60,721 nucleotides of DNA from Chloroflexota bacterium (GCA_031431395.1 JANPDJ010000001.1:1-60721), one strand, 5' to 3'. Positions 33,968-48,978 are shown, counted from the stretch's first letter. The notes: generated by a model not told the origin, from the letters alone. Translations and numbers: made by a program.

Positions 33968-34324
33968 GTGACCGGGATCTGGTACATCCTTGGGTTTGCC
34001 TTCGCCGGCCTGTCGTTCGTGTTCCTCACGATCGGCGCGGCATGGCTGATCTCCCATCGGAATCGCGGCGATGTCCACAAGGGCCTGCCGTACGAGAGCG
34101 GGATCGACACGTACGGCGATCCCCACGGGCGGTTCGGCCTGTCCTTCTACATCTATGCGTTGCTGTTCGTCGCGTTCGACATCGAGGTGATCTTCATCTA
34201 CCTCTGGGCGATCGTGTTCCGCGACCTCCTGATGAGCGGCTTCGTGAGCATGCTGATCTTCGTCGCCATCCTCCTGCTCGGCCTCGCCTACGCCTGGCGA
34301 AAGGGCGTCCTCACATGGCGCTGA
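33968..34324 (+). CDS. nuoA: NADH-quinone oxidoreductase subunit A
   Basis: 118 aa, 3 TM helices. [28 protein letters not shown]. Confidence 0.92.
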
Positions 34325-35088
34325 GCGGTCCGGGGGAAGGTGCCACGGGTGATTCGGGCGGGACTCCAGAGAGCGGCGGCGGCATGACGGCCCGTGAGTC
34401 GAGCCGATCCTCCAGCCTGCCGGCCGTCATCGAGACGGGCGACTCGGCCGTCATGGAACCCATCGTGGTCCCGAACACCCTCTGGCAGTCCACCAATCCG
34501 GCCGCGTACAGCGGCGGCACGCCCACCGACATCACGCACCTCCGCGAGCTTGGGCTCACGGAGGCCATGCGCCACAACGATGCCCGCTGGGGCGCCCTCG
34601 AGGTGATCCCCACCAAGGCGGACTACGTCCTGGACCTTCTCCGCGCAAACAGCCTGTGGCCGCTCTTGTCGGGCCTGGCCTGCTGCGCCATCGAGATGAT
34701 GTCGGCGGCCACCAGCAAGAACGACATGGACCGCTGGGGCATGTTCCCGTTCCGCGCCAGCCCGCGCCAGGCGGACGTGCTGATCGTCGCCGGGACGCTC
34801 ACCACCAAGATGGCCGGGCCGCTTGTGCGGCTCTGGGAGCAGATGCCAGAGCCAAAGTGGTGCGTGGCCATGGGCGATTGCACGATCTCCGGCGGCCGGT
34901 ACAAGCGGTCCTACTCCACGGTGGAAGGCATCGACCGCGTGATGCCCGTGGACGTCTATGTCCCCGGCTGCCCGCCCCGCCCGGAGGGCCTCATCTACGG
35001 GATGATGCGGCTCCAGCAGTTGATCAAAGACCGCCGGGGTCACTGGCCCGAGCGGGCGGTCGGCCCAACCGTTCCGGATCGTGTCTAG
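34315..35088 (+). CDS. nuoB: NADH-quinone oxidoreductase subunit B (N2 cluster) with a long N-terminal extension
   Basis: [43 protein letters not shown]. Start uncertain; ATG at 34315 overlaps the nuoA end. Confidence 0.88.
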
Positions 35089-35097
35089 GCCAGCCTG

Positions 35098-35649
35098 ATG
35101 GATCGTGCGCTCAAGCTGCGCCTGGAAGCGCGCTTCACGGATCGGCTGACCGGGCCGGTGCGCCAGCGCCATGACGCGACGGAGATCCGTATCGGGGCCG
35201 GCGACGTGCCGGACACGCTGCGCACCCTCCACGACGACCCGTCGTTCCGGTTCGAGTTCCTGTCGGACCTGGCCGGCGTCGACACGGGGCTCGTCATGCA
35301 GGTCGTGTACCACCTGTGGAGCGAGACCACCTCGGACTGGCTGAGGGTCATCGCGGACGGGCTGTCGCGCGAGGATCCGCGCGTCCCTTCCATCACGTTC
35401 CTCTGGCAGGGCGCGGAGTGGATGGAACGCGAGGCCTACGACATGTTCGGCATCACGTTCGAGGGGAACCGGGACCTGCGGCGGATCTACATGCCCCCGG
35501 ACTACACGAGTTTCCCTCTCCGCAAGGACTTCTTCCTGGCCGACGATGCCGCCCGCTCGCCGGGCGCCGGCGTGCGCCACCAGGAGCAGACCCACACGCC
35601 CCGCAACGCGCCCCCGGGACGCGCCATCCGCGTGGCTAAGGAGGCCTGA
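35098..35649 (+). CDS. nuoC: NADH-quinone oxidoreductase subunit C
   Basis: FEFLSDLAGVD, PSITFLWQGAEWMEREAYDMFGITFEGN.DLRRI. Confidence 0.9.
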   Translation: MDRALKLRLEARFTDRLTGPVRQRHDATEIRIGAGDVPDTLRTLHDDPSFRFEFLSDLAGVDTGLVMQVVYHLWSETTSDWLRVIADGLSREDPRVPSITFLWQGAEWMEREAYDMFGITFEGNRDLRRIYMPPDYTSFPLRKDFFLADDAARSPGAGVRHQEQTHTPRNAPPGRAIRVAKEA

Positions 35650-36882
35650 GTGACCGCTCAACCAGGCTCCGGGACCCGCCGCGCATCCAGCGACGATCCG
35701 CGCGTGATGCTCGACATCGACGCCGGGGCGTACGAGCCGGTGCCGCCGTACCCGCCCCGCACGGAGCGTGAAGCCGAGTTCTACACGCTCGCCGACGGCG
35801 AGATGTTCGTGAACATGGGCCCGCAGCACCCCTCCACGCACGGCGTTCTGCGGGTCGTGCTGAAGCTCCGCGGCGAGCAGGTCGTGGACCTGGACCCCGT
35901 CCTCGGCTACCTCCATCGCGGCGTGGAGAAACTGGCGGAGAACGCGGACTACCACCACACCATCGCCTACATGGACCCGCTCGAGTACATCTCCTCGCTG
36001 TTCTGCGAGTGGCCGGCAGTGATGGCCTTCGAGAAGCTGCTCGACGTGGAGGTGCCCCGTCGCGCGGAGTACATCCGTGTCCTGTCCACGGAGCTGAACC
36101 GGGTCGCCAGCCATGCCCTGTTCATGGGCTGGTTCGCGCTTGACCTGGGCGGCCTGACGCCGGTCCTCTGGAGCTTCATCGAACGCGACGAGATCGTGGA
36201 GATGCTGGGCGCGCTGACCGGGGCGCGGATGCTCTTCAACTACATGCGGATCGGCGGCGTCAACGGAGATCTGAACCACGAGTTCATGAGCCGCCTGGGA
36301 GCGTGGATGAGCCGCGCCGGCACGCATATCGACTCGAACACGAAGCTGCTCAACGAGAACGAGATCTTCGTCCGCCGCTCGCGAGGTCTCGGTGTCGTGG
36401 ACCGCGAGACGGCGGTCCGGATGTGCATGACGGGACCCAACCTGCGCGCAACGGGCGTGCCATTCGACGTCCGCCGCGCACACCCCTACAGCGTGTTTCC
36501 GGAGCTGGACTTCGACATCCCCACACGGACGGAGGGCGATTCGCTCGCACGCTACCTCCTCCGCGTGGACGAGATCAAGCAGAGCCTGCGAATCATCGAC
36601 CAGTGCCTCCACCAGATGCCTGACGGCCCGATCATGGCGAAACTGCCGCGCAGGCTGACACCCCGACCCGGCCGTGCCTACGCTGCCGTGGAGAGCCCCC
36701 GGGGGCAGTACGCCGTGTACGCGATGAGCGACGGCACGGACCAGCCGTTCCGGCTGCGCATCCACGATCCCTCGTTCGTCCATCTCCAGAGCGTCGGCCT
36801 CCTGATGCCGGGCAATCTCGTCGCGGACACGATGGCGATCATGGCCTCGCTGGACCCGGTCATGGGGGGCGTGGACAAGTGA
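35650..36882 (+). CDS. nuoD: NADH-quinone oxidoreductase subunit D
   Basis: NMGPQHPSTHGVLRVVL, GYLHRGVEKL, YMRIGGV, ESPRGQYAVY, DPVMGGVDK. Confidence 0.95.
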   Translation: MTAQPGSGTRRASSDDPRVMLDIDAGAYEPVPPYPPRTEREAEFYTLADGEMFVNMGPQHPSTHGVLRVVLKLRGEQVVDLDPVLGYLHRGVEKLAENADYHHTIAYMDPLEYISSLFCEWPAVMAFEKLLDVEVPRRAEYIRVLSTELNRVASHALFMGWFALDLGGLTPVLWSFIERDEIVEMLGALTGARMLFNYMRIGGVNGDLNHEFMSRLGAWMSRAGTHIDSNTKLLNENEIFVRRSRGLGVVDRETAVRMCMTGPNLRATGVPFDVRRAHPYSVFPELDFDIPTRTEGDSLARYLLRVDEIKQSLRIIDQCLHQMPDGPIMAKLPRRLTPRPGRAYAAVESPRGQYAVYAMSDGTDQPFRLRIHDPSFVHLQSVGLLMPGNLVADTMAIMASLDPVMGGVDK

Positions 36883-36913
36883 TCGCGCGACGTTCCGGCC
36901 GGAGCCGGGCTCG

Positions 36914-38254
36914 ATGACGTCCGTTTCGCGCGCCTGGGGCCGGCTGACCCTGCCGGGCAAGATCATCTTCACCCTGGTGCCGCTCCTGCTGGCGATGACG
37001 GTCGGCCTGCTCGTCGCGGTGGTGCTCGTCGGGCCCTACGTCCTGCAGTTCCTGGGCGACAACCTGCCCCTCGTGCGCTTCGTCGTCGCGGCCACGGCCG
37101 TGCTCCTGATGTCGATCCCCACGGCCTTCATCATCATCTACATGGAGATGAAGGTCATCGCGCTGATGAACCTTCGCATCGGACCGGACCGCGTTGGACC
37201 CTACGGGTCGCTCCTGTCGGTGGTCCACGGGCTCAAGGTCCTCATGAAGGAGGACTTCACCCCAACCGGGGCGGATGCGCCCGTGTTCACCCTCGCGCCC
37301 GCCGTGGTCTACCTGGGCGCGGTGATGTCGCTGCTCGTGATTCCGTTCGCCCCGGGGCTCTTCGGGCAGGACTTCAACATCGGCCTGCTGTATTTCTTCG
37401 CGGTGAGCGGCCTCAGTGTCGTCGGCCTGATGATGGCCGGCTGGTCCAGCTACAACAAGTACTCGCTGCTGGGCGGCCTGCGGTCCGCGGCCCAGGTGAT
37501 CAGCTACGAGATCCCGCTCACCCTTTCGGTGGTGGGCCTGCTCCTGCTGGCCGGCACGATGAGCCTCAACACGATCGTCCTCAACCAGTCCGGCACTGCG
37601 CTCGACTGGTACATCTTCCGCCAGCCGCTGGGGTTCCTGATCTTCTTCATCGCCGCGACCGCGGAGGCCAACCGCACGCCGTTCGACCTCACGGAGGCCG
37701 ACTCGGAGATCGTCGCGGGCTTCGCCACGGAGTACTCGGGGATGCGCTTCGGGTTCCTCTTCTTCGCCGAGTACGTCGGGGTGTTCGTCGTTTCTGCGAT
37801 GACGGTGACCCTGTTCTTCGGCGGCTGGAACGCCCCCTTCAACTGGCCGTGGCCGGTCACCGCCAGTCTCGACCCGGGCAGCCTGGGCATCCTGCTACTC
37901 ATCCTGGTCGCCATCGTCCCGGTCCTTGGGACCCTGCTGTTCGCCGCGCCGTTCTGGCTGCTCCGCTCGTCGATGCCGGGCTGGCAGGCGCTGATCATCG
38001 GCTTCCTGATCTTCAATTTCGTGGCCGTGGGAGCTGTCCTCGGGTGGGCATTCATCAGCTTTGACTGGGTCGTGGGTCTGCTCTGGTTTATGCTGAAGAC
38101 CTACGGTTTCGTGTTCACCTTCGTCTGGATGCGGGGGACGTTGCCGCGCGTCCGGATCGACCAGCTGATGGGATTCGCCTGGAAATGGCTGCTGCCCGCC
38201 TCCCTGCTGAACCTGTTCGTGACGGCCGGTGCGCTCATCGTGCTGAACCGCTGA
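36914..38254 (+). CDS. nuoH: NADH-quinone oxidoreductase subunit H (long form)
   Basis: MEMKVIALMNLRIGPDRVGPYG..LKVLMKEDF, AEANRTPFDLTEADSEIVAGFATEYSGMRF. Confidence 0.92.
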   Translation: MTSVSRAWGRLTLPGKIIFTLVPLLLAMTVGLLVAVVLVGPYVLQFLGDNLPLVRFVVAATAVLLMSIPTAFIIIYMEMKVIALMNLRIGPDRVGPYGSLLSVVHGLKVLMKEDFTPTGADAPVFTLAPAVVYLGAVMSLLVIPFAPGLFGQDFNIGLLYFFAVSGLSVVGLMMAGWSSYNKYSLLGGLRSAAQVISYEIPLTLSVVGLLLLAGTMSLNTIVLNQSGTALDWYIFRQPLGFLIFFIAATAEANRTPFDLTEADSEIVAGFATEYSGMRFGFLFFAEYVGVFVVSAMTVTLFFGGWNAPFNWPWPVTASLDPGSLGILLLILVAIVPVLGTLLFAAPFWLLRSSMPGWQALIIGFLIFNFVAVGAVLGWAFISFDWVVGLLWFMLKTYGFVFTFVWMRGTLPRVRIDQLMGFAWKWLLPASLLNLFVTAGALIVLNR

Positions 38255-38312
38255 GCCGCGTTCAAATGAGCTGTCCGTCGACCCGCTCCCGCGTGTCCAT
38301 CGAGGCCGTGCG

Positions 38313-39140
38313 ATGAGCTTCATCCCCGGGATCGGGATCGCAAAGGGCATGGCCCTGACGCTGCTCCGATTCTTCCAGCCCAAGGTGACCATCCGCTACC
38401 CGGAAGTCGCCGCGGATGTCTCCCCGAAGTTCCGGGGCCGCCTGCAGCTCCTCTACGACGAGTGGGGCACGCTCAAGTGCGAGACCTGCTTCCAGTGCGC
38501 GCAGGCCTGCCCCATCGAGTGCATCGACATGGGCGGGACGGACACCAAGGGCCGGTATCACGTCCACTGGGGCGCGGCGGAAACGTACGGCGAGCGGCGC
38601 GATGAATCCGCGCTGCGGCGTTCGGGCAGGCCGGTCCCGGACGAGGCCTACAGCCACGATCAGCCCATGAATCTCGAGGCCGTGGACGCGATCCTCGCGG
38701 CGTATGACCACGATCCAGGGTCGATGCTCCAGATCCTGGGCGACGTGCAGGACACCTACGGCTACCTGCCCGTGGCGGCGCTGAAGCGGATCAGCACGTC
38801 CACCGGTGCCTGGTACGCGATGATCTACGGTACTGCGTCGTACTACCGCCATCTGCGATTCGATCCGCCGGGCCAGTCCGTCGGCATCTGCCGCTGCACG
38901 AGCTGCCTGATCAGCGGGGGTGGTCGGATCCAGGAGGCGCTGGAACGCGGGCTCCGGGCCAGCCTCGGCAAGACTCCGTTGAGCGGCGGGATCCGGCTGG
39001 AACAGCTGCCCAACCATGTCGCGGGCGCGTCATCGCCTCTCGTGATGGTCGCCGGCGAGCCCGTCGCACTGACGCCGGAAACGGCGGAGCCCTGGGCTCG
39101 TGGCCTGGCGCCACAGTCCGGCACCCGGGCACAGGCCTGA
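38313..39140 (+). CDS. Fusion protein: NuoI N-terminal half (one 4Fe-4S motif) + NuoE-like thioredoxin-fold domain
   Basis: Residues 1-88: PKVTIRYPE, KFRGRL, and C56-x2-C59-x2-C62-x3-C66-P (38478-38513). A second ferredoxin motif is absent in all frames. Residues ~118-250: YDHDPGSMLQILGDVQDTYGYLP..IYGTASYYRHLRFDPPGQSVGICRCTSCLISGG (NuoE-like). Confidence 0.8.
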   Translation: MSFIPGIGIAKGMALTLLRFFQPKVTIRYPEVAADVSPKFRGRLQLLYDEWGTLKCETCFQCAQACPIECIDMGGTDTKGRYHVHWGAAETYGERRDESALRRSGRPVPDEAYSHDQPMNLEAVDAILAAYDHDPGSMLQILGDVQDTYGYLPVAALKRISTSTGAWYAMIYGTASYYRHLRFDPPGQSVGICRCTSCLISGGGRIQEALERGLRASLGKTPLSGGIRLEQLPNHVAGASSPLVMVAGEPVALTPETAEPWARGLAPQSGTRAQA

Positions 39141-39144
39141 GGTC

Positions 39145-40476
39145 ATGACAACGCTGCTCGCCACACCGGCCGGCTGGCCGCAGATCCTGCTGGCACGAGC
39201 CAGGAAAGCCGCGCCCGTCGGCAGCCCCGGCTCGGCGACGGCGACCGGCCCGTTCGCAGGACTCCGGATCGCGATCGAGCGGCTCGGCCCGGAAGGCACG
39301 ATCAGAGCGATCGAGCAGTCGGGCCTGCGCGGCCGAGGTGGGGCAGGCTTTCCCACCGGCACGAAATGGCGCAAGGCCGCCGCCACCGAGGCATCGCGCC
39401 GGTACGTCGTCGCCAACGGATACGGCGCCGATCCGGCCGTCTCCATCGACCAGGTCCTCATGGAGCGGGACCCGTTCGGGCTGCTTGAGGGCGTCGCCAT
39501 CGCCGCGTACGCAATCGGCGCGTCCGAGGCCGTCATCGCGGTGCGCGCGGAATACGCGGAGGCCGCCCGCGGACTGGAGGCCGCCATCCTGGCGGCAGAG
39601 GCAGCCGGGTTCCTGGGCGCGGACATCCTGAGCTCGGGCGTCGATCTGACCGTCACGGTCCGGACCGTGCAGGGCGCCTACATGCTGGGCGAGGAGACGG
39701 TCCTCCTGAAGGCCCTCGAAGGCAAGCGCGGGCAGCCGGAACAGCGGCCGCCGCACCCGGCGGAGCGGGGGATGTTCGGGCAGCCCACGGTCGTCCAGAA
39801 CATCGCCACCCTGATCGCCGTCCCGTGGATCCTCGTGAACGGCGCGGAGGCGTGGCGGGCCATCGGCACGCCGGACGCACCCGGAACCGTGCTCGTCCAG
39901 GTCAGCGGCGCGGCCGCGAACGGGATCGCGGAGGTGCCCACGGGCACCACCTTGGCGCAGATCATCGACCTTGCGGGCGGCGTGGTGCCGGGCCGTCGGG
40001 TGAAGGCAGTCCTCGTCGGCGGGCCATCCGGCGGGCTCCTGCCGGCGACGGCACTGGACACCCCGTATGACTTCGGGCCGTTGCGCGCCGCGGGCGCCCA
40101 CGTGGGCTCTGGCTCCATCGTGGTCGCCGACGAGCGGACGTGCGTGGTGGACCTGGCTCGCCTCCTGACGGCGTTCTGCGCCGACGAGGCATGCGGCAAG
40201 ACCATCCCGTGCCGGATCGGGACACGCCGGATCGCCGAGATCGGGGACCGCGTGACGAGCGGTCGGCCGCGCCCCACGGACCTGCAGCTCCTGGCGGACC
40301 TCAGCCATGATGTGGTCGCGTCCGCGCTATGCGATCACGAGCGCCTGGCGACCCTTCCGTACGCCAGCGCGATGCGATACTTCCGCTCCGAGCTCGACGA
40401 CCACGTTCTCCGCAGCTCCTGCCCGGCCGGTGTCTGCCGCCCCATCGCGGTGGCCGGCGTTGCGGCGGGCTACTGA
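39145..40476 (+). CDS. nuoF: NuoF-like subunit with divergent FMN/NADH and N3-cluster signatures
   Basis: GLRGRGGAGFPTGTKW, QGAYMLGEETVLLKALEGKRGQPEQRPPHP, PTVVQNIAT. However, it has ANGYGADPAVS in place of CNADESEPGT, and C350-GK-T353-IP-C356...C396 in place of CxxCxxC...C. Confidence 0.85.
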   Translation: MTTLLATPAGWPQILLARARKAAPVGSPGSATATGPFAGLRIAIERLGPEGTIRAIEQSGLRGRGGAGFPTGTKWRKAAATEASRRYVVANGYGADPAVSIDQVLMERDPFGLLEGVAIAAYAIGASEAVIAVRAEYAEAARGLEAAILAAEAAGFLGADILSSGVDLTVTVRTVQGAYMLGEETVLLKALEGKRGQPEQRPPHPAERGMFGQPTVVQNIATLIAVPWILVNGAEAWRAIGTPDAPGTVLVQVSGAAANGIAEVPTGTTLAQIIDLAGGVVPGRRVKAVLVGGPSGGLLPATALDTPYDFGPLRAAGAHVGSGSIVVADERTCVVDLARLLTAFCADEACGKTIPCRIGTRRIAEIGDRVTSGRPRPTDLQLLADLSHDVVASALCDHERLATLPYASAMRYFRSELDDHVLRSSCPAGVCRPIAVAGVAAGY

Positions 40477-40485
40477 GGCCTTCCG

Positions 40486-43080
40486 ATGACCGATCTCGCC
40501 ATCCGACCCAGAGCCACGCTCGATCCCCTCGCGCATGCCGAGACGCTGCTGGACACCCAGGCGCCGCAGCGGCCGACGGCCACGCCCCGGATCCGGATCG
40601 AGGTGGACGGGCGCGTCGTGGAAGGCCTGGAGGGCCAGACCATCCTCGAGGTCTGTCGCGACAACGGCATCGAGATCCCCACGCTCTGCTACGAGCCCAA
40701 GCTGCCGGGCTTCGGGGCATGCCGGATGTGCGTCGTCGAGGTGGAGGGCGAGGAGCATCCGCCCATCTCCTGCTCGCGCGCCTGCGAAGACGGCATGAAG
40801 GTCCAGACGCAGACGGAAGAGGTGCGGCGCCTCCGCCGGACCAACCTCGAGCTGATCTTCAGCGACCACAACGCGTACTGCCTGCCGCCGTGCCAGAACA
40901 AGTGCCCCAGCCACATCGACATCCCGGGCTTCCTGAAGCAGAACGCGGAGGCGAACTGGCGCGAGTCCGTGCGGATCTTCAAGCGGACCATCCCGTTCCC
41001 TTCGGTCCTGGGGCGGGTCTGTCCAGCCCCGTGCGAGGAGCACTGCCGTCGCGACGAGGTGGACGAGGCGATCGCGATCCGCGACTCGCACCGATATGCC
41101 GGCGACCAGGTGATCAGGGCGATGCTCAACGAGAACGTGGACCCGCCGGTCCCGTTCGAGGTCCAGCCCCGGAGCGGACGCCGGATCGCCGTGATCGGAT
41201 CCGGGCCGGCGGGCGCCACCGCTGCGTACTACCTCCTGATCGCCGGCCACGACGTGACCATCTTCGAACGGGACCCCATGCCGGGCGGGATGCTCCGCTA
41301 CGGCATCCCGCAGTACCGGCTTCCCAAGGTGGAGGTCCTCGAGGCGGAGTACGAGGGCATCGTGCGGCTCGGCGGCCGGTTCGTGACGAACCAGGGCCTC
41401 GGGCGCGATTTCACGCTGGACGACCTGCAGAACCAGGGGTTCGACGCGGTCTGCGTCGCCATCGGCTGCTACGACACGAACAAGCTGGGGATCCCCGGCG
41501 AAGACGGCACCGGCGTCATCGACGGCCTGGACTACCTGCGCACGGCCACCCTGGGCCTCGAATACCCGGGCCACGCCGGGAGCCGCGTCGTGGTCATCGG
41601 CGGCGGCTTCACCTCGATGGACTGCACCCGCACGTCCGTCCGGCTGGGCGCGGCGGAGGTCACGCTGGTCTACCGGCGCGACATGAAGGACATGCCCGCC
41701 TCCGACGAGGTGCACGAGGCCATCGAGGAAGGCGCCACGGCGATCTTCCAGGCGGGCCCGGTCCGGATCGTGACCGACGCCACCAACACGGTCACGGGCG
41801 TGGAGTTCATCCGGATGAAGCTTGGCGAGCCGGATGCGTCCGGTCGCCGCCGCCCGGAGCCTGCCCCCGGTACCGAGTTCACGATCCCGTGCGACCGCGT
41901 CCTCCTGGCCATCGGCCAGGGCCCGGACCTGACATGGATCGGCCCCGGCTCCGATGGACCGAAGGCCAGCAAGCAGCGCCGCCTCGTTGCCGACGCGGTC
42001 ACCTTCGAGACCGGACGGCCGGGTGTCTTCGGCACAGGTGACGTGCGCATCGGCGCGGCGACCGTCGTGCAGGCCATCGCGGAGGGCCGCCGGGCCGCCT
42101 ATGCCGTGGATGCGTACGTCAAGGGCCTGGACCTGGCCGCCATCCGGACCCGCCAGACGCTGGCCGAGCCCCAGCCCGAGTTCCTGTCCATCGTGCCGTT
42201 CACCAGCGAGATCAAGGAGCCCCGCATCCGCCTGAAGAAGATGGAGGCGGAGGCCAGGAATCGCAGTTACATCGAGTACGAGATCCCCTACACGCGGGCC
42301 GAGGCGGTCGCGGAGTCCACGCGCTGCCTCCAGTGCACCTGCGAGGCGATCGGCTTCTGCGACCTGCGGCGGCTGGGGATCGAGTACGGCACAACCCTTG
42401 CGACGCTCGAGCCGCACCACAACTCCGGTGCAGGCTACCGCTCCGTGACCGAGAACCGGTTCACCGGCTACAACCACGACTACATCCGCGATGACTCACA
42501 CGCGTTCATCCTGCGCGAGCCGTCCCGCTGCATCGACTGCGGCCGTTGCGCGCAGGTCTGCTCGGAAGTGGTGGGCGCGGCCTGCTACGACTTCATGCGG
42601 ATCGGCTTCGACACCCTGGTGACGACGCCGCTGGATATGAGCCTCAACGACACGCCGTGCGTCTCGTGCGGCCGCTGCGCCGAGACCTGCCCCACGGGCG
42701 CGCTCATGCCCAAACCGCGGGTGCTGCAGAAGTACGAGGTCGACGAAAGCCGCTGCATCCTGTGCGGCATCTGCGTGGACGCCTGCCCGTATGACGCGCT
42801 CCGCGACAGCACGGAATTCGAGCTGTCCCACGAGTCGCGGGCAGAACCCATGATCGACCTGCTGTCCTACTCCGCCGTCAACCAGGAGACGGAAGTCACG
42901 TACATCCGGCGCGAGCGCGACTGGGCGGAGCGCGCCATGGCGGACGGCCGGCTGCTGGACACCGGACGCCTGCTGCCGATGCTGCCGGCGTCCATCGCGA
43001 ACGGCAACGGGAATGGACATGGCAACGGCCACGCGCACGACCACGGAGGCGCGGGCGCCACCGCGGGGCGGCACAAGTAA
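40486..43080 (+). CDS. Chimeric Fe-S flavoprotein: NuoG-type 2Fe-2S N-terminus + GltD-like FAD/NAD(P)H domain + 2x[4Fe-4S] region + NuoI C-terminal half
   Basis: - 2Fe-2S: TLCYEPKLPGFGACRMCVVEV...SC.
- GltD part: SDHNAYCLPPCQNKCPSHIDIPGFL, GRVCPAPCEEHC, IAVIGSGPAGATAAYYL, GGMLRYGIPQYRLPK, VVVIGGGFTSMDC, VFGTGDV.
- 2x[4Fe-4S]: RCIDCGRCAQVC and CVSCGRCAETCPTGAL.
- NuoI-like end: KYEVDESRCILCGICVDACPYDAL..FEL...DLL.
- No molybdopterin-like NuoG body. Confidence 0.85.
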   Translation: MTDLAIRPRATLDPLAHAETLLDTQAPQRPTATPRIRIEVDGRVVEGLEGQTILEVCRDNGIEIPTLCYEPKLPGFGACRMCVVEVEGEEHPPISCSRACEDGMKVQTQTEEVRRLRRTNLELIFSDHNAYCLPPCQNKCPSHIDIPGFLKQNAEANWRESVRIFKRTIPFPSVLGRVCPAPCEEHCRRDEVDEAIAIRDSHRYAGDQVIRAMLNENVDPPVPFEVQPRSGRRIAVIGSGPAGATAAYYLLIAGHDVTIFERDPMPGGMLRYGIPQYRLPKVEVLEAEYEGIVRLGGRFVTNQGLGRDFTLDDLQNQGFDAVCVAIGCYDTNKLGIPGEDGTGVIDGLDYLRTATLGLEYPGHAGSRVVVIGGGFTSMDCTRTSVRLGAAEVTLVYRRDMKDMPASDEVHEAIEEGATAIFQAGPVRIVTDATNTVTGVEFIRMKLGEPDASGRRRPEPAPGTEFTIPCDRVLLAIGQGPDLTWIGPGSDGPKASKQRRLVADAVTFETGRPGVFGTGDVRIGAATVVQAIAEGRRAAYAVDAYVKGLDLAAIRTRQTLAEPQPEFLSIVPFTSEIKEPRIRLKKMEAEARNRSYIEYEIPYTRAEAVAESTRCLQCTCEAIGFCDLRRLGIEYGTTLATLEPHHNSGAGYRSVTENRFTGYNHDYIRDDSHAFILREPSRCIDCGRCAQVCSEVVGAACYDFMRIGFDTLVTTPLDMSLNDTPCVSCGRCAETCPTGALMPKPRVLQKYEVDESRCILCGICVDACPYDALRDSTEFELSHESRAEPMIDLLSYSAVNQETEVTYIRRERDWAERAMADGRLLDTGRLLPMLPASIANGNGNGHGNGHAHDHGGAGATAGRHK

Positions 43081-43154
43081 CGGGCAAGAAGCGCCCGGGC
43101 GGAGGCAGCGCCCGGGGTGCAACCACAACACGAAGAAGAGGAGAGGCGTAGGCG

Positions 43155-43691
43155 TTGGCGATCCCGTCAACCGTGCCGTTCATCGGGCTGAGCTGGGACG
43201 ACGTGCTGTTCCTGCTCTTTGCGACCACGATGATCGGGACGGCTCTGCTTGTCGTGTCGATGCGCGACATCATTCGCTGCGGCCTGGCGATGATGGCGTC
43301 ATTCGGCGCACTCGCCGGCATCTACGTCCTGCTGGGCGCCCCGCTCGTGGCTGCAGCCCAGGTACTGATCTACATCGGCGCCATCGCGGTTCTCATCCTG
43401 TTCGCCATCATGCTCACCCAGTCGAAGGCCGCGCCCGCCCGCCTCGTGTTCCAGACGCAGGCAGTTCCGGCCGGCATCGCCGCCGTGATCCTCGCCGTGG
43501 TCATCGCATTGACGGTCACGGCCACGGACTGGGGCGCGGTCACGAGCCGCCTCGGCACCGCGACGGACGAACTTGCGAGGCTGCTCTTCCGTGACTACGT
43601 GCTGCCGTTCGAGATCGTCAGCGTCCTGCTGCTGGCCGCGGTCATCGGCGGGGTATTCCTCGCGAAGCGCGAGGAAGGCGGGCCGCAATGA
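43155..43691 (+). CDS. nuoJ: NADH-quinone oxidoreductase subunit J
   Basis: TTG start after a purine-rich SD. AAAQVLIYIGAIAVLILFAIML, FEIVSVLLLAAVIG. Confidence 0.88.
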   Translation: MAIPSTVPFIGLSWDDVLFLLFATTMIGTALLVVSMRDIIRCGLAMMASFGALAGIYVLLGAPLVAAAQVLIYIGAIAVLILFAIMLTQSKAAPARLVFQTQAVPAGIAAVILAVVIALTVTATDWGAVTSRLGTATDELARLLFRDYVLPFEIVSVLLLAAVIGGVFLAKREEGGPQ

Positions 43692-43999
43692 GCAACTCGC
43701 TCGACGCCTACCTCGTGCTGTCCGGGATCATCTTTGCCATCGGCACATTCGGCTTCCTGGCGCGCCGGAACGCCATCAGCATGCTCATGTCCATCGAACT
43801 CATGCTGAATGCCGTCAACCTCGCGATCGTCGCGTTCGGGTCGTTCGTGGAGGCGCTCAGGACGGCGTCCTCCGTCATCGCACTGATCGTGATGGCCGTC
43901 GCGGCGGCGGAAGCCACCGTGGGCCTCGCGATCGTGATCGCCATCTACCGCAACCGCCGCACGCCGCTGGTCGATGAGTACGACACGCTGCGCCAGTAA
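43688..43999 (+). CDS. nuoK: NADH-quinone oxidoreductase subunit K
   Basis: 103 aa. MLMSIELMLNAVNLA, AAAEATVGLAIVIAIYR. ATGA overlap with nuoJ. Confidence 0.92.
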   Translation: MSNSLDAYLVLSGIIFAIGTFGFLARRNAISMLMSIELMLNAVNLAIVAFGSFVEALRTASSVIALIVMAVAAAEATVGLAIVIAIYRNRRTPLVDEYDTLRQ

Positions 44000-44014
44000 C
44001 CCGATCGAGGCCTG

Positions 44015-45964
44015 ATGGAGACCCTGATCCCGCTCATTCCGGCCCTGCCCCTGGCCGGGTTCGTCTTCACCGGGCTGTTCGGCCGGCGGCTGGGCAAGCG
44101 CGCCTCACTCGTGCCCGTGCTTGCGGTCGTGGCCTCCTGGATGATCGCCATGGTGGTCGTCTACAACGCGCTCACCGGCTCGGGCGCCTTCGCGGGCGGC
44201 CAGGGCGTGGAGGTCCACCTCTGGAACTGGATCCCGGCGGGCGCGTTCCAGGTCCAGTTCGGCTTCTACGCGGACAACCTCACGGCCTGCCTCCTGATCG
44301 TGGTCACCACGATCGGCATGCTCGTGCACGTCTACTCGCTCGGATACATGAGCCACGACCCCGGGTACTGGCGCTTCTTCGCCTACCTGAACCTGTTCAT
44401 GTTCTCGATGCTGCTCCTGGTCCTCGCGGACAACTTCCTGCTCGTATTCGCGGGCTGGGAGCTGGTGGGCCTGTCCAGCTACCTGCTCATCGGGTTCTGG
44501 TACCGCAGGCGGTCGGCCGCCCTTGCCGCCAAGAAGGCCTTCATCGTGAACCGCGTCGGAGACGTGGGGTTCGCCCTGGGGATCATGGCGATCTTCGTGT
44601 CGCTGGGCACGCTCAACATCCGCGAAGTCATCGAGCGGATCGGCACCCTCGACCACACTCAGATCACGGTGATCGCCCTGCTGCTCTTCGCGGGCGCCAT
44701 GGGCAAGAGCGCCCAGTTCCCGCTCCACGTGTGGCTCCCGGACGCGATGGAGGGCCCCACGCCCGTGTCCGCCCTGATCCACGCGGCGACGATGGTCAAC
44801 GCGGGCGTCTACCTGGTGGCCCGGGCGAACCCGATCTTCGCCCACGCGCCGGAGGCGATGGTGGTGGTCGCGGCCGTCGGCATCTTCACCGCAATCCTGG
44901 CCGCGTCCATCGCGTTCACCCAGACCGACATCAAGCGTGTGCTCGCGTACTCCACGCTGAGCCAGCTGGGCTACATGTTCGCCGCGCTCGGCGTGGGAGC
45001 ATGGACGGCGGCCATCTTCCATCTCATGTCGCACGGCTTCTTCAAGGGCCTGCTGTTCCTTGATTCGGGCTCGGTGATCCACGCCGTGGACGGGGAACAG
45101 GACATGCGCCGGATGGGTGGACTGCGCCGCCGGATCCCCATCACGTACGCGACGATGTTCATCGGGTCCGTGGCCATCTCCGGCATCCCACCCCTCGCCG
45201 GTTTCTTCAGCAAGGACGAGATCCTGGGCGAGGCCTTCAAGAACGGCTTCCTGTGGGTCTGGGCCATCGGCCTCCTCGTGGCTGGCATGACGGCGTTCTA
45301 CATGTTCCGGCTCATGGGCCTCACGTTCTGGGGCAAGAGCCGCGTGGACCCGGCCGTCGAGCCGCACATTCATGAGTCACCGCGATCCATGACCCTGCCG
45401 CTGCTCGTCCTGGCCGTCCCGAGCGTCCTCCTCGGCCTGGCGATCGGCTGGCCCCTCGGGAGCGGCCAGCTCCGCACCTGGCTCGAGCCCGTGTTCCACG
45501 AAGCGGTGGAGCTCGCGGCGCGCCCGGAAGCCGCGTATGCCTTCTTCGGGGTTGACGGCGCCCTCCTGATCACGAGCGTCGCCGTGGCCACCCTGGGAAT
45601 CATCGGCGCGTGGGCGCTCTTCGGACTCGAGCTCCCGGGCATCCGGCGCGCCGGCAACCCGGATCGCGTCCGCAGCCTCGCGGGCCGGATGCCGTTCCTG
45701 TACCGCGCGTCGCTCAACAAATGGTGGTTCGACGAGCTCTACGACCTCCTGTTCATCCGCATCGGCGGCCGGATCGCGGCCTTCCTCTGGTGGTTCGACC
45801 GGGCGGTGGTGGACGGAACGGTGAACGGCGTGGGGGCGCTCACCGCGGACGCCGGGCGCGGCCTGCGGCGCTTCCAGACCGGCCACGTGCAGAACTACGC
45901 CCTCGGCATCGCGATCGGCCTGATCGTCATGGCGGGCGGCTATCTCGTGATTGCGGGGCGGTAG
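44015..45964 (+). CDS. nuoL: NADH-quinone oxidoreductase subunit L
   Basis: FAGWELVGLSSYLLIGFW, GKSAQFPLHVWLPDAMEGPTPVSALIHAATMV, and a C-terminal lateral-helix region. Confidence 0.95.
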   Translation: METLIPLIPALPLAGFVFTGLFGRRLGKRASLVPVLAVVASWMIAMVVVYNALTGSGAFAGGQGVEVHLWNWIPAGAFQVQFGFYADNLTACLLIVVTTIGMLVHVYSLGYMSHDPGYWRFFAYLNLFMFSMLLLVLADNFLLVFAGWELVGLSSYLLIGFWYRRRSAALAAKKAFIVNRVGDVGFALGIMAIFVSLGTLNIREVIERIGTLDHTQITVIALLLFAGAMGKSAQFPLHVWLPDAMEGPTPVSALIHAATMVNAGVYLVARANPIFAHAPEAMVVVAAVGIFTAILAASIAFTQTDIKRVLAYSTLSQLGYMFAALGVGAWTAAIFHLMSHGFFKGLLFLDSGSVIHAVDGEQDMRRMGGLRRRIPITYATMFIGSVAISGIPPLAGFFSKDEILGEAFKNGFLWVWAIGLLVAGMTAFYMFRLMGLTFWGKSRVDPAVEPHIHESPRSMTLPLLVLAVPSVLLGLAIGWPLGSGQLRTWLEPVFHEAVELAARPEAAYAFFGVDGALLITSVAVATLGIIGAWALFGLELPGIRRAGNPDRVRSLAGRMPFLYRASLNKWWFDELYDLLFIRIGGRIAAFLWWFDRAVVDGTVNGVGALTADAGRGLRRFQTGHVQNYALGIAIGLIVMAGGYLVIAGR

Positions 45965-45967
45965 GCA

Positions 45968-47506
45968 ATGGACATCACCGGCCTGCCGATCCTGACGCTG
46001 ATCACCTTCGCGCCGCTGGTGGGGGCGATCCTCATCGCGTTCATCCCGCGAAGCAGCGCCGGCCTGGTCCGGGCAACGGCACTGGGGACGAGCCTTGTGT
46101 CGTGGGCGCTGTCGCTGTTCCTGCTCGTTGGTTTCCTGCCCTCGCACCCGAACTTCCAGTTCGTGGAGCGGGCGGACTGGATCTCCGCATTCGGGATCCA
46201 GTACAAGCTTGGCGTTGACGGCCTCTCGCTCGTCATGGTGGTTCTGACCACCACGCTCACGTGGATCTCGATCCTCGCCAGCTTCGGGCCGATCAAGGAA
46301 CGGGTGAAGGAGTACATGATCTCCTTCCTCATCCTCGAGGTCGGCATGCTCGGCGTGTTCGTTGCCCTCGACCTGTTCCTCTTCTACATCTTCTTCGAGA
46401 TCGTTCTCGTGCCGATGTACCTGATCATCGGCATCTGGGGCGGGGCAAACCGCATCTACGCGACGATCAAGTTCGTCCTGTACACGCTGGTGGGCTCTCT
46501 GCTGATGCTGGTGGGCATCCTGGCCACCGCATTCGCCTTCCAGGCGGCGCACGGGGGCAACTGGGCGGGAGCCTTCGACTACGAGACGCTGCGCCAGTTC
46601 AGCTTCGACAGCACCCTGCAGTTGTTCGCATTCCTCGCCTTCTTCCTGGCGTTTGCGATCAAGATCCCGATGTTCCCGTTCCACACGTGGCTGCCCGACG
46701 CCCACGTGGAGGCTCCCACCGCCGGCTCCGTGATCCTGGCGGGGGTTCTCCTCAAGCTGGGTGGATACGGGTTCATCCGTTTCGCGGTTCCGCTCTTCCC
46801 CGAGGCCGCCCATACCTACGCGCCGGCGATCATCCTGCTGAGCGTCATCGCGATCATCTACGGGGCCATCGTGGCTCTCGTCCAACCAGACCTGAAGAAG
46901 CTGGTGGCCTATTCATCGGTCAGCCACATGGGCTTCGTGACGCTGGGCATCTTCGTGTTCCAGGAGCAGGGACTCCAGGGCGCGATCCTGCAGATGGTCA
47001 ACCACGGGCTGATCACGGGCGCGCTGTTCCTCCTCGTCGGGGTGCTCTACGAGCGGACCCACGACCGGACGATTGCGAAGATGGGCGGGCTTTCGGCGCA
47101 GATGCCCGTCTATGCCGTCGCCTTCGGGTTCTTCATGCTGGCCTCGGCCGGGTTGCCCGGGCTCTCCGGCTTCATCGGCGAGTTCCTCGTCTTCGTGGGC
47201 TCCTTCGCGTATTCCCCGGCCGTCGCGGCAGCGTCAACGATCGTGATGGTCTTTGCCGCCGGGTACCTGCTCTGGATGTTCCAGCGGATGTTCTTCGGCG
47301 AACTGTCTGACTTCTTCAAGAACGCCATCGGCCACCTCGACGACCTGCGGCCGACGGAAGTGCTGACGCTGGTCCCGCTCGGCGTGCTGGTTGTCGTCTT
47401 CGGCCTGTTCCCGGGCCTCCTTCTCACGCTTGTCCAGGGCACGGTCACGGAGGTGCTCCACGGCGCCGCACAGGCGAGCGCCATCAACCTGGCGTTCTGG
47501 CAGTAG
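45968..47506 (+). CDS. nuoM: NADH-quinone oxidoreductase subunit M
   Basis: FYIFFEIVLVPMYLIIGIWGG, KIPMFPFHTWLPDAHVEAPTAGSVILAGVLLK. Confidence 0.95.
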   Translation: MDITGLPILTLITFAPLVGAILIAFIPRSSAGLVRATALGTSLVSWALSLFLLVGFLPSHPNFQFVERADWISAFGIQYKLGVDGLSLVMVVLTTTLTWISILASFGPIKERVKEYMISFLILEVGMLGVFVALDLFLFYIFFEIVLVPMYLIIGIWGGANRIYATIKFVLYTLVGSLLMLVGILATAFAFQAAHGGNWAGAFDYETLRQFSFDSTLQLFAFLAFFLAFAIKIPMFPFHTWLPDAHVEAPTAGSVILAGVLLKLGGYGFIRFAVPLFPEAAHTYAPAIILLSVIAIIYGAIVALVQPDLKKLVAYSSVSHMGFVTLGIFVFQEQGLQGAILQMVNHGLITGALFLLVGVLYERTHDRTIAKMGGLSAQMPVYAVAFGFFMLASAGLPGLSGFIGEFLVFVGSFAYSPAVAAASTIVMVFAAGYLLWMFQRMFFGELSDFFKNAIGHLDDLRPTEVLTLVPLGVLVVVFGLFPGLLLTLVQGTVTEVLHGAAQASAINLAFWQ

Positions 47507-47514
47507 GGGCGGGC

Positions 47515-48978
47515 GTGAGCGCGGCTGATTTCTCCACCATTTCGCCCGTCGTCGCGGCCGTTCTTGTCGCGGCCGCGATTCTTCTCGTCGACATCGTGCG
47601 GCCGGGTTCGCGCACCCTGGCCATCGCCACGTCGCTCCTGGGTCTCGCGATCGTCGCGGCGGTCGTCCTCTGGGCGGGCCAGTCCACGGCCGACGCGTTC
47701 GACGGGGCCTACCGGCAGGACGCGCTGACCACCTTCCTCGACCTGCTGTTCGTGGCGATCGTGGCGTTCACGATCGTCTTCGCCCCGGACTACCTGGAGT
47801 CGCGCGATCTGCCCTTCGCGGAGTTCGCGGCGGTCCTCGTGTTCGCCATGACGGGCGCGATGCTCCTCGCGGCAGCGTCCGACCTCCTGGTGCTCTTCCT
47901 GGGCCTCGAGTTGATGGTCATCCCGGGCTATCTCCTTGCCGGATTCGCCAAGCGGGACGCACTCTCGACTGAAGGCGCCATCAAGTACTTCCTCCTCGGG
48001 TCGTTCTCGTCGGCCATCTTCCTGTTCGGCCTTGTGTTCACCTGGGGGCTGACGGGCTCCACCCGGATCGATGACGTTGCCCGGCATCTCACGGACATGC
48101 TCTCGGGCGGAGCCTCGATGTCGGCCGGGCTCGCGATGGGCCTGGCGTTCATGACCACGGGCGTCGCCTTCAAGATCGCGGCCGTGCCGTTCCACTACTG
48201 GACGCCGGACGCGTACCAGGGCTCACCGACACCCATCACCGGCTACCTCTCCGTGGGCCCGAAAGTGGGCGCATTCGCCCTCATCCTGCGGCTGTTCATC
48301 GGGGCGCTGGATCCGCTGAAGACCGACTGGTTGCCGGTCATGGAGATCCTCGCCGCGCTCACGATGACCATGGGCAACCTGGTCGCCCTGACACAGAGCA
48401 ACGTCAAGCGGATGCTGGCGTACTCGTCGATCGCGCACACCGGCTACATCCTCGTCGGTCTGGCTGCGTATGCCGCCGGCCGGATCGAGGGCCTGGAGGG
48501 CGTGCTGTTCTACGCCGCGGCCTACACGTTCATGAACCTGGGGGCGTTCGCCGTTGTCGCGGCGCTGCAGCGGCGGCCCGGCGTCACGTCGCACCTGGAC
48601 ACGTTCGCAGGACTCGGCCGCCGCGAGCCCATCCTCGGCGTTCTGATGACGCTGTTCCTGCTGTCACTCACGGGGATACCGCCGCTGGCCGGCTTCTTCG
48701 GCAAGGCCTACGTCATCCTGGCGGCTGTCCAGGCGGGCGGCACGCTGACGATCCTTGCGGTCATCGCCGTCCTCAACGCGGCGGCGGCGGCCTTCTACTA
48801 CCTGCGCGTCGTCGTCTACATGTACATGCGCGAGCCCACGTCGGAAGCCGAGCCGCCGAAGCACGGATCCCTCGTCTGGGCGGGCCTCTGGGCGGCCAGC
48901 GCGCTGACGATCGCGATCGGTGTGTTCCCGGGACCGCTGCTCGACGCCGTCCACCACGCGGCACTCGCCCTGCCGTAG
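47515..48978 (+). CDS. nuoN: NADH-quinone oxidoreductase subunit N
   Basis: FLGLELMVIPGY, FKIAAVPFHYWTPDAYQGSPTPITGYLS, KRMLAYSSIAHTGY. GTG start. Confidence 0.93.
   Translation: MSAADFSTISPVVAAVLVAAAILLVDIVRPGSRTLAIATSLLGLAIVAAVVLWAGQSTADAFDGAYRQDALTTFLDLLFVAIVAFTIVFAPDYLESRDLPFAEFAAVLVFAMTGAMLLAAASDLLVLFLGLELMVIPGYLLAGFAKRDALSTEGAIKYFLLGSFSSAIFLFGLVFTWGLTGSTRIDDVARHLTDMLSGGASMSAGLAMGLAFMTTGVAFKIAAVPFHYWTPDAYQGSPTPITGYLSVGPKVGAFALILRLFIGALDPLKTDWLPVMEILAALTMTMGNLVALTQSNVKRMLAYSSIAHTGYILVGLAAYAAGRIEGLEGVLFYAAAYTFMNLGAFAVVAALQRRPGVTSHLDTFAGLGRREPILGVLMTLFLLSLTGIPPLAGFFGKAYVILAAVQAGGTLTILAVIAVLNAAAAAFYYLRVVVYMYMREPTSEAEPPKHGSLVWAGLWAASALTIAIGVFPGPLLDAVHHAALALP

Follow-up and report, generated by a model that had tools for sequence, protein, structure and literature searches.

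Complex I is seen as modular, with the subunits of its Q-module as fixed parts. Operons of the 11-subunit type, nuoABCDHIJKLMN (PMC3144371), carry nuoI as one gene and encode no flavoprotein input; canonical 14-subunit operons place the input genes E, F and G between D and H. An alternative electron input is described for the predicted Nuo-Bfu and Mbh-Bfu complexes (Schut et al. 2022, PMC9304861), where a Bfu-type module lies mid-operon among complex I-like or hydrogenase-like genes, and Nuo-Bfu has been reported in Deferribacteres, Proteobacteria, Planctomycetes and Nitrospirae. In mbx-like operons (Degli Esposti 2015, PMC4758237), a GltD-type NAD(P)-binding flavoprotein is found at the NuoI position. 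Structures are available for the soluble StnABC (8oh5) and NfnABC (9n5u) (PMC10482914, PMC12018979), electron-bifurcating transhydrogenases of the Nfn-Bfu type, which use NADPH to reduce NAD and ferredoxin. Here, we describe an operon of the Chloroflexota in which NuoI, a core Fe-S subunit, is cut and its halves are fused to what is likely a borrowed module of the StnABC family. No description of a split NuoI was found in the literature searched, and a complex I with NuoI split by a transhydrogenase-type cassette has apparently not been described there before.

The window is a 60,721-nt stretch of DNA from a Chloroflexota bacterium (GCA_031431395.1, JANPDJ010000001.1:1-60721). Positions 33968-48978 hold 13 genes, all on the + strand, and Pfam and NCBIfam matches for all 13 bear out the originally predicted order; with domains named, it reads A-B-C-D-H-[I'+E-like]-[F-like]-[2Fe2S/GltD/ferredoxin+I'']-J-K-L-M-N. 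All 11 subunits of the complex I core (A, B, C, D, H, I, J, K, L, M and N) are encoded, NuoI as two halves. As also predicted, nuoH is the next gene after nuoD (nuoD up to 36882, nuoH from 36914), and none of E, F or G separates the two. The features are as follows.

32638..33834, + strand: MidA/NDUFAF7-like methyltransferase, just 5' of nuoA (PF02636, E 6.8e-58)
33968..34324, + strand: nuoA (PF00507, E 1.7e-31)
34315..35088, + strand: nuoB (PF01058, E 8.8e-27)
35098..35649, + strand: nuoC (PF00329, E 1.8e-36)
35650..36882, + strand: nuoD (PF00346, E 4.9e-85; NCBIfam NuoD, E 1e-129 to 1e-131)
36914..38254, + strand: nuoH (PF00146, E 3.3e-103)
38313-39140, + strand: I'E, NuoI (NF004537, residues 9-83) plus a NuoE-type fold (PF01257, residues 125-251)
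38313..38570, + strand: I', N-terminal half of NuoI (NF004537 positions 23-99; TIGR01971 positions 1-66)
38658..39140, + strand: NuoE/StnA/NfnC-like domain of I'E (PF01257, E 5e-19; best PDB matches 9n5u_C, 9bov_C and 8oh5_A)
39100..40476, + strand: F-like, NuoF/StnB-like (PF01512, PF10589)
40486-43080, + strand: G'I'', 864 aa (PF13510, 2Fe-2S; PF14691 and PF07992, GltD-type; 4Fe-4S dicluster; C-terminal half of NuoI)
40486..42690, + strand: StnC/NfnA-like part of G'I'' (PF13510, PF14691, PF07992; NCBIfam PRK12814, E 1e-167)
G'I'' residues 35-110: 2Fe-2S domain
G'I'' residues 132-546: GltD-type domain with two 4Fe-4S clusters and FAD and NADPH sites
G'I'' residues 614-625: C-x2-C-x-C-x5-C cluster
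G'I'' residues 682-735: 2x[4Fe-4S] ferredoxin-like domain
42709..42885, + strand: I'', C-terminal half of NuoI (NF004537 positions 100-147; TIGR01971 positions 71-114; alignment with intact NuoI)
43155..43691, + strand: nuoJ (PF00499, E 2.1e-32)
43688..43999, + strand: nuoK (PF00420, E 3e-25)
44015..45964, + strand: nuoL (PF00361, PF00662, PF01010)
45968..47506, + strand: nuoM (PF00361, PF01059)
47515..48978, + strand: nuoN (PF00361)

The nuoB product has a Gly/Ser-rich N-terminal extension of ~100 aa, and the translation of 34042-35088 contains the motifs CCAIEM, GDC and GCPP, whose cysteines we take to be the four ligands of cluster N2. The methyltransferase upstream of nuoA is a possible complex I maturation factor. 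The MidA/NDUFAF7-like family also occurs downstream of G'I'' in a locus of another family (L097).

The cut in NuoI falls between its two CxxCxxCxxxCP motifs. I' makes up residues 1-86 of I'E, which has 275 aa in all, and comprises the N-terminal helix and the first motif (C56, C59, C62 and C66), whose cysteines are invariant among 10 homologues. I'' (G'I'' residues 742-789 in the NF004537 alignment) holds the second motif (C757, C760, C763 and C767) and the FELS tail, and is joined C-terminally to the StnC-like protein, where the FdhF-like domain of StnC would begin. The E-, F- and G-like genes thus lie between the two halves, in agreement with the original prediction. A NuoI polypeptide with both motifs is absent, the first being in the product of 38313-39140 and the second at the end of the product of 40486-43080; no intact complex I-type nuoI was found in the rest of the genome (92.9% complete), whose one further NuoI-like gene is part of a hydrogenase-like cluster. 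AlphaFold2 gave pLDDT values below 50 for residues 1-117 of the I'E protein, weak evidence that this part is not confidently folded alone; for the 864-aa G'I'' run without an alignment, the pLDDT of 31 was unusable.

The split was found in ~91 of 400 evenly sampled Chloroflexota genomes, roughly a quarter, and the gene order is identical in 78 of 80 loci of other species, including megabase contigs, so that neither chance nor assembly error accounts for it. The same junctions recur in hundreds of genomes, among them megabase long-read contigs, with conserved linkers and open reading frames. This conservation refutes the view that the split is not real, whether as an assembly chimera, a decaying pseudogene, or a removable mobile element, intron or intein that would restore NuoI. 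The NuoI halves are moreover located far from nuoH and nuoJ in several families, no Hint or intein domain was detected in Pfam scans, nothing turned up in favour of this view, and we give it practically no credence.

An early reading of the window that the cut was not clean was rejected: the NF004537 coordinates of the two halves abut at 99/100 without overlap, so the cut is clean. This bears on a stepwise route to the same end state, in which the cassette first came to lie beside nuoI or between two copies of it, followed by complementary loss and separate fusions. Two in-frame fusions from one event are demanding, the early reading had noted a weak (R/K)Y-x-V repeat in both NuoI halves, and in a MAFFT alignment the stretch ETYGERRDESALR of I' is paired with ERYxERYEI of intact NuoI. 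Against these points stand the non-overlapping coordinates and the finding that no genome among those searched has the cassette beside an intact or duplicated nuoI, and we regard the stepwise route as unlikely.

Three split layouts were distinguished, ABCDH-IEFG, BD-IEFG with ACHJKLMN, and B-IEFG with ACDH. The order ABCDH-I'..I'' is found throughout clade X2 of the F tree and in G211, which is basal in clade X1; higher up within X1, the BD- and B-only clusters occupy nested positions. This nesting polarises the layouts, with ABCDH-I'..I'' as the ancestral one and the BD- and B-only clusters as later fragmentations, as read from the sequence tree. Intact 11-subunit operons ABCDHIJKLMN are also present in Chloroflexota (L111-L114). 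The family f24, known from complete genomes and carrying the B-IEFG form, was considered as possibly made up of phototrophic Chloroflexaceae; no reaction-centre genes were found in 5 genomes.

The original prediction held that the topology reflects insertion of a soluble oxidoreductase cassette, with origins incongruent with those of the complex I genes, and this is supported. Among solved structures, each of the three cassette proteins best matches the soluble StnABC (8oh5, 9bov) and NfnABC (9n5u), and the gene order E-like, F-like, GltD fusion is that of stnA-B-C. In F trees built from 150 representatives drawn from 1.8 billion proteins, the split-type F proteins form one clade (SH-aLRT 92) whose sisters are long Bfu-type proteins. 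Judged by their sequences, the genes between the nuoI halves are homologues of the soluble Nfn-Bfu/StnABC transhydrogenase and not displaced NuoEFG. The "G-like" protein, which had been taken for NuoG, proved to be a fusion of the StnC/NfnA type, in which NuoG is represented by its N-terminal Fe-S parts alone, together with a flavoprotein domain of the GltD type. G'I'' aligns with 9bov_A over residues 36-767 (E 4e-161) and with 8oh5_C (E 1.9e-144). The former alignment stops at residue 699 of the 1178-residue chain, and in place of the FdhF-like domain the C-terminal half of NuoI follows.

These results also bear on a rearranged 14-gene operon, in which the operon's own NuoE, NuoF and NuoG would have moved from the D-H gap into nuoI and diverged, NuoG gaining a GltD domain. 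The E-like and F-like proteins do match NuoE and NuoF models, and a 14-subunit ancestor is compatible with the core-subunit tree. However, the F-like protein scores 359 bits to StnB versus 244-292 bits to bacterial complex I NuoF; it is distant in the tree from Chloroflexota 14-subunit NuoF, including that of the split-carrying genomes G018, G066 and G211; the alignment of the third protein with StnC-type chains spans 730 residues, the GltD insertion included; and other gene orders exist among the relatives compared, as nested fragmentations of the window order, none being a canonical D-E-F-G-H intermediate. Such a rearrangement is therefore very improbable, and insertion, as originally proposed, is supported by the cassette origin and the lack of canonical intermediates.

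No free-standing donor operon was found. On contig C103 the genome has a second NuoF-like gene, which was rejected as a donor: it is an FdsB-type NuoE+F fusion, adjoins a formate dehydrogenase and is distant in the tree. No link to the split-type system was found for Caur_1185, the stray nuoF listed in the Chloroflexus genome paper.

The recipient had been predicted to be of the 11-subunit type. The adjacency of nuoD and nuoH agrees with this and is the one feature behind the label; a concatenated tree of 10 core subunits did not group the split type with 11-subunit operons, and its sister could be of the 11- or 14-subunit type. In this tree, the relations of the four groups are weakly supported (58/10 and 74/73; split-type monophyly 74/73).

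The cassette proteins differ in what they have kept. In G'I'', the cluster cysteines are invariant in 11 sequences, and GSGPAG, GGGFTSMD and YRR are also conserved. The E-like domain of the window retains its first Cys pair and has lost the second, and with it the canonical 2Fe-2S site; this site is lost in every lineage, f1-f3 lacking the second Cys pair and f4 and f9 the whole thioredoxin-like domain. The F-like frame encodes 458 aa, and translation may in fact begin further downstream. The protein has neither the N-terminal nor the C-terminal Fe-S domain of StnB, has no Fer4 domain, and aligns only to residues 124-527 of the 584-aa StnB. Its FMN/NADH motif reads ANGYGADPA versus the family consensus CNADEGDPG (NADE to NGYG). 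A change of NADE (to NAY/NGY) is shared by all split-type F proteins. The N3 motif CGKCxxC reads CGKTIPC in the window. Given the invariant cluster ligands and FAD and NADPH motifs of G'I'', the loss of the E-like cluster and the remodelled flavin site of the F-like subunit, the FAD in the GltD-type subunit is probably where electrons enter, with NAD(P)H as the donor. The preference for NADPH is our reading of a single feature, the retained YRR motif of GltD-type enzymes. A PntB is present in the genome, which neither demands nor excludes an NADPH-driven pump.

The F-like subunit may still bind flavin and NADH, as its Gly-rich loop and GEET motif are kept and the N3 cysteines are complete in X1. 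A working two-flavin or confurcating input would then have the F-like subunit bind FMN and NADH, the complex oxidising NADH and NADPH, or NAD(P)H and ferredoxin, as proposed for Nuo-Bfu. The SLBB part is likewise conserved, all four N3 cysteines are kept in f4, f9 and other X1 lineages, the F-like subunit is present in every lineage, and Nuo-Bfu is predicted in other phyla (PMC9304861). Set against this, every member has Tyr or Met in place of the FMN-contact Asp, one N3 Cys is gone in f1-f3, the BfuC-type 2Fe-2S cluster, part of the bifurcating site (PMC12018979), is lost in every lineage, and the ferredoxin-binding C-terminal domain of BfuB is absent. We consider this input rather doubtful and favour entry at the GltD-type FAD.

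The likely history begins with a Chloroflexota ancestor whose nuo operon had nuoD beside nuoH, like 11-subunit operons. A three-gene operon of the Nfn-Bfu/StnABC family would have entered nuoI in the region coding for the loop between the cluster motifs, the first half of NuoI becoming joined to the StnA/NuoE-like protein and the second half taking the place of the inactive FdhF-like tail of the StnC-like protein. The insertion was apparently single and ancient, with the operon later broken up in some lineages; insertion, in one event or in several steps, is the mechanism we infer. I' and I'' would fold together into one 2x[4Fe-4S] unit with clusters N6a and N6b, a joint fold that would fasten the foreign module onto NuoB, NuoD and NuoH. 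The FAD of the GltD-type domain would be reduced by NAD(P)H, most likely NADPH, and electrons would pass along the conserved cluster chain of this protein to N6a/N6b, N2 in NuoB and quinone, and so power the usual proton pump. Having lost the parts needed for electron bifurcation, the E-like and F-like subunits would probably serve mainly as scaffold.

More tentatively, the enzyme could be a proton-pumping NADPH:quinone oxidoreductase and the sole complex I in a class that is abundant in soil and fresh water, with the foreign module held by an N6a/N6b fold made from two polypeptides. If so, the split core subunit would itself be the dock for the module, and complex I would be fed from the NADPH pool instead of, or besides, the NADH pool. 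The operon offers a complex I whose possible use of NADPH can be put to the test, as well as a dated and polarised example of a new electron-input module grafted onto a pump apparently of the 11-subunit type, a question usually limited to the origin of NuoEFG. As a natural split-ferredoxin assembly, it could guide the engineering of new inputs.

Among known systems, StnABC and NfnABC share with the window three genes in identical order, NuoF-like and NuoE-like partners, and a large subunit that, like G'I'', combines NuoG-like 4Fe-4S clusters and a 2Fe-2S domain at the N-terminus with an inserted FAD/NADPH domain of the GltD type. They are soluble, whereas the window cassette lies within a membrane complex I operon; the large subunit of StnABC has an FdhF-like tail, whereas that of the window has half of NuoI, the other half being on the NuoE-like protein. 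StnA and BfuC carry a four-Cys 2Fe-2S cluster whose canonical site the small subunit of the window has lost, and the F-like subunit lacks both the intact FMN/NADH motif and the C-terminal 2x[4Fe-4S] ferredoxin-binding domain of BfuB and StnB, so bifurcation is not expected. The 11-subunit operons have the same 11 core genes in the same order, with nuoD followed by nuoH, and in the window nuoI is split around a flavoprotein cassette. With canonical 14-subunit complex I, the window has in common the Q- and P-modules, the N2 ligands of NuoB and a hydrophilic E/F/G-like input that contains a chain of 4Fe-4S clusters besides a 2Fe-2S domain, but its input genes lie inside nuoI and belong to another NuoF-family branch, an extra GltD-type FAD/NADPH site is conserved, and the FMN site is remodelled. 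The predicted Nuo-Bfu likewise has a Bfu-type module mid-operon as an alternative electron input; there, BfuABC lie between D and H, NuoI is intact, the bifurcating core is complete and a GltD domain is lacking, whereas the window cassette lies in nuoI after nuoH. Finally, the mbx-like flavoprotein substitutes for NuoI in a ferredoxin:NADP-type complex, whereas the window has a true Nuo operon that keeps both halves of NuoI, joined to a module of three proteins.

The operon in the window (G+C about 70% across the region) consists of 13 genes, all on the + strand, that either overlap slightly or lie only a short distance apart. NuoA, B, C, D, H, J, K, L, M and N are unambiguous by Pfam and NCBIfam. 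As the original prediction had stated, nuoD is followed directly by nuoH (the former ends at 36882 and the latter begins at 36914), and three genes lie between nuoH and nuoJ:

38313-39140, + strand: I'E gene, 275 aa, NuoI N-terminus with the first motif CETCFQCAQACP, fused to a NuoE-like domain
39100-40476, + strand: F-like gene, NuoF-like (PF01512, PF10589)
40486-43080, + strand: G'I'' gene, 864 aa, large subunit with the second NuoI motif near its end

Residues 9-83 of I'E correspond to positions 23-99 of the NCBIfam NuoI model NF004537 and are followed by a conserved linker and a NuoE-type thioredoxin-like domain (PF01257). In G'I'', a NuoG/HoxU-type 2Fe-2S domain precedes a GltD-type domain (FAD and NADPH folds), more 4Fe-4S motifs and finally the second NuoI motif (KYEVDESRCILCGICVDACPYDAL, then a FELS tail) at residues 742-789, equivalent to model positions 100-147. 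Because the pieces abut in model coordinates (99 and 100), the break in NuoI is clean and falls between the two cluster motifs, and alignment with intact NuoI of related genomes gave the same picture. The domain matches and model coordinates thus bear out the predicted placement of the E/F/G-like genes between the halves of NuoI.

NuoB of the window is extended at its N-terminus by a Gly-, Ser- and Thr-rich stretch of about 100 residues (34315-34620), which is absent from the short NuoB homologs (182-199 aa) of other families. G'I'' ends in an Asn/Gly/His-rich tail (42990-43077; NGNGNGHGNGHAHDHGG) found in the closest relatives only and absent from other families. Upstream of nuoA, at a distance of 133 nt and in the same orientation, lies a gene for a MidA/NDUFAF7-type methyltransferase (PF02636; 32638-33834), and the same protein family occurs in family f4 just downstream of the B-D-I'E-F-G'I'' cluster (locus L097, 15031-16119). 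Its position beside split-type genes in both cases may reflect a conserved connection with the maturation of the split-type complex.

We compared the three cassette proteins with all PDB chains using phmmer. The best entries common to all three were 9bov/9bp5, 8oh5/8oh9 and 9n5u. The large subunit matches 9bov_A (E 4e-161, residues 36-767) and 8oh5_C (E 1.9e-144); the F-like protein scores 359 bits against 8oh5_B, compared with 292 bits for the best complex I NuoF and 244-264 bits for most bacterial NuoF; and the E-like domain is best matched by 9n5u_C, 9bov_C and 8oh5_A. The entry 8oh5 is the StnABC transhydrogenase of Sporomusa ovata, whose StnC is NuoG-like but contains a GltD-type NADPH/FAD domain as an insertion and ends in an FdhF-like domain that is inactive (PMC10482914), and 9n5u is the Nfn-Bfu enzyme NfnABC of Thermococcus sibiricus (PMC12018979). 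The order stnA-stnB-stnC is that of the E-like, F-like and GltD-fusion genes of the window. The large subunit aligns with StnC-type chains up to the start of their FdhF-like domain, where it has the C-half of NuoI instead, and the very start of the StnA-like fold is preceded by the N-half of NuoI and a 30-residue linker. The cassette boundaries thus coincide with domain boundaries of an stnABC-type operon.

The F-like protein was searched against 1.84 billion cluster representatives, and trees were built from the 150 best matches, the F-like proteins of all layouts and the canonical NuoF of Chloroflexota 14-subunit operons. With canonical NuoF/FdsB as the root of the IQ-TREE tree, the split-type F proteins are all united in a single clade (SH-aLRT 92). 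Its nearest neighbors are about 600 aa long and have ferredoxin motifs at the C-terminus (Bfu type), and the representatives basal to both of its subclades are Chloroflexota as well. The canonical NuoF of three genomes that also carry the split type (G018, G066 and G211) falls in the distant NuoF clade. The predicted incongruence of origins is therefore seen even within single genomes. The motif table shows that the family motif CNADEGDPG is changed to N-(A/G)-Y in nearly all split-type F proteins and to N-L-M in family f3, and this change is a shared derived character of the group.

A scan for the I'E fusion, using one genome per species, found several hundred stretches, and the best 80 were taken for mapping with tblastn using the window proteins. 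These 80 are all from Chloroflexota, labelled mostly Limnocylindria/Limnocylindrales. The order A B C D H I' E F G' I'' J K L M N was found in 78, complete in every mapped locus whose contig was long enough. The remaining two (L046, 10001-10867; L052, 5784-6581) are lone second I'E fusion genes without nuo neighbors, the former adjoining a 2-oxoglutarate dehydrogenase gene, in genomes that also carry the full split operon. Among 400 evenly drawn Chloroflexota genomes, 43 have the window-type fusion (families f1, f2 and f3, the window's own class) and 48 more a divergent form (f4, f9, f19, f24, f28 and f46), giving about 91 for both. One contig labelled Candidatus Polarisedimenticolia (Acidobacteriota; L079) has a split operon that is 80% identical to that of the window across residues 1-186 of I'E; it is probably a mis-binned Chloroflexota contig and not a second phylum.

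Besides intact operons, four layouts were found:

Families f1-f3: full single operon; in f3 with an extra 1.7-1.9 kb between I'' of the G'I'' gene and nuoJ (L105, 14400-16300; also L106 and L107)
Genome G211 (f19): A-B-C-D-H-I'E-F-G'I'', followed after 5.7 kb of unrelated genes by a canonical A-B-CD-E-F-G... operon
Family f4 (of the window's class): B-D-I'E-F-G'I'' at one locus and A-C-H-J-K-L-M-N at another
Families f9, f24, f28 and f46: B-I'E-F-G'I'' amid unrelated genes; f9 has in addition an A-C-D-H locus and, separately, genes for a canonical 14-subunit complex

The open reading frames in the extra f3 stretch had no Pfam match. In G211 the split-type operon is partial, lacking J-N, and the canonical operon follows on the same strand (contig C115; L128/L130). 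The f4 genomes have a single NuoB and a single NuoH each. NuoD of the A-C-D-H loci groups with NuoD of f4 (98) and of the single operons (87), and the dispersed pieces are therefore of the same kind of complex. In some Chloroflexota, nuoD and an intact nuoI form an isolated two-gene unit among unrelated genes (L110, 8735-10412; also L109), so scattering of nuo genes is common in the phylum.

In the F tree, all members of clade X2 (f1-f3) have the full order, and clade X1 leads from G211 (ABCDH-IEFG) near its base through f4 (BD-IEFG) to the B-IEFG group. The order A-B-C-D-H-I'...I'' occurs on both sides of the deepest split, and the phylum's intact ABCDHIJKLMN operons (L111-L114) are collinear with it. 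This order is thus most simply read as the ancestral arrangement, from which the other layouts arose later by fragmentation. Synteny across relatives revealed these other orders, and in none of the split-type variants found do E, F and G separate D from H.

Cassette identity, F-tree incongruence, the clean cut and the layouts together support the proposed insertion of an oxidoreductase cassette into nuoI. A tree of ten concatenated core subunits (3022 columns) contains four solid groups: 14-subunit, 11-subunit, split single-operon and split dispersed. The two split groups are joined weakly (74/73), with no intact type placed as their sister, and the ancestor may thus have been not an old 11-subunit lineage but an operon from which EFG had only recently been lost. 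That NuoI is cleanly cut favors one insertion; a stepwise route via duplicated or adjacent nuoI copies is less likely, and the loci and layouts examined contain no intermediates for either route.

In the NuoI-type 2x[4Fe-4S] ferredoxin fold, each cluster is bound by three cysteines of one motif and the fourth of the other. Thus, I' and I'' would have to fold together to form N6a and N6b, which would tie the E-like and GltD-type proteins to the Q-module. In an alignment of 11 large subunits from both clades, the cluster ligands are all invariant (11/11):

Invariant cluster ligands of G'I''
C68, C79, C82, C96
H128, C132, C136, C140
C179, C183, C187
C614, C617, C619, C625
C682, C685, C688, C692
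C725, C728, C731, C735
C757, C760, C763, C767

The window protein also has an FAD fold (GSGPAG), a second dinucleotide fold (GGGFTSMD) and a YRR motif, and the large subunit looks fully functional. Judged from their sequences, the E-like and F-like subunits are both eroded. In f1-f3 the second Cys pair of the E-like domain is gone, and in f4 and f9 the entire thioredoxin-like domain is lost. In the F-like protein, StnB's N-terminal domain and its C-terminal, ferredoxin-binding domain are both missing, the FMN-contact Asp is replaced in all members, and one N3 cysteine is lost in f1-f3. Electron bifurcation would not be expected, since the bifurcating site of Nfn-Bfu includes the small-subunit 2Fe-2S cluster (PMC12018979). 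Most likely, NAD(P)H would reduce the FAD, and electrons would pass through the GltD clusters, the NuoG-like clusters, N6a/N6b and N2 to quinone; the NuoG-like leg corresponds to a branch called a non-functional remnant in StnC (PMC10482914). A single feature, the retained YRR motif, favors NADPH as the putative donor. A second, NADH-linked entry at the F-like subunit is possible, since its Gly-rich loop and GEET motif are kept.

In the rest of the assembly (3.2 Mb, completeness 92.9%), NuoD-like and NuoI-like genes occur only on contig C131 (L095), in a hydrogenase-like cluster whose large subunit is a NuoC/D-type fusion bearing a NiFe-hydrogenase signature and which also encodes a small ferredoxin and an antiporter subunit; this is a fragment of a group-4 hydrogenase-like membrane complex. 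The sole other NuoF-like gene (contig C103, L094) is an FdsB-type NuoE+F fusion beside a molybdopterin formate dehydrogenase, a soluble, NAD-linked enzyme of which the fusion is a subunit. As these genes belong to other systems, the split operon is the only complex I in the assembled sequence. PntB is also encoded.

In the literature searched, we came upon neither a split NuoI nor an Nfn/Stn-type module within nuoI, and this design does not appear in a survey of complex I variants from 2025 (PMC12361115). Operons with 11 subunits have been listed for Chloroflexi (Moparthi and Hägerhäll 2011, PMC3144371), and mbx-like operons have a GltD-type flavoprotein in the place of NuoI (Degli Esposti 2015, PMC4758237). 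Mbh-Bfu has been predicted in Dehalococcoides, and Nuo-Bfu, in which NuoI is intact and BfuABC lies between D and H, in other phyla (Schut et al. 2022, PMC9304861). The split-NuoI operon is a complex I with an alternative input module, for which a mechanism is proposed from the proteins encoded; the features set out here are its alternative layouts, the polarity given by the F tree, the shared NADE-to-NAY change, and an invariant large subunit as opposed to eroded small ones.
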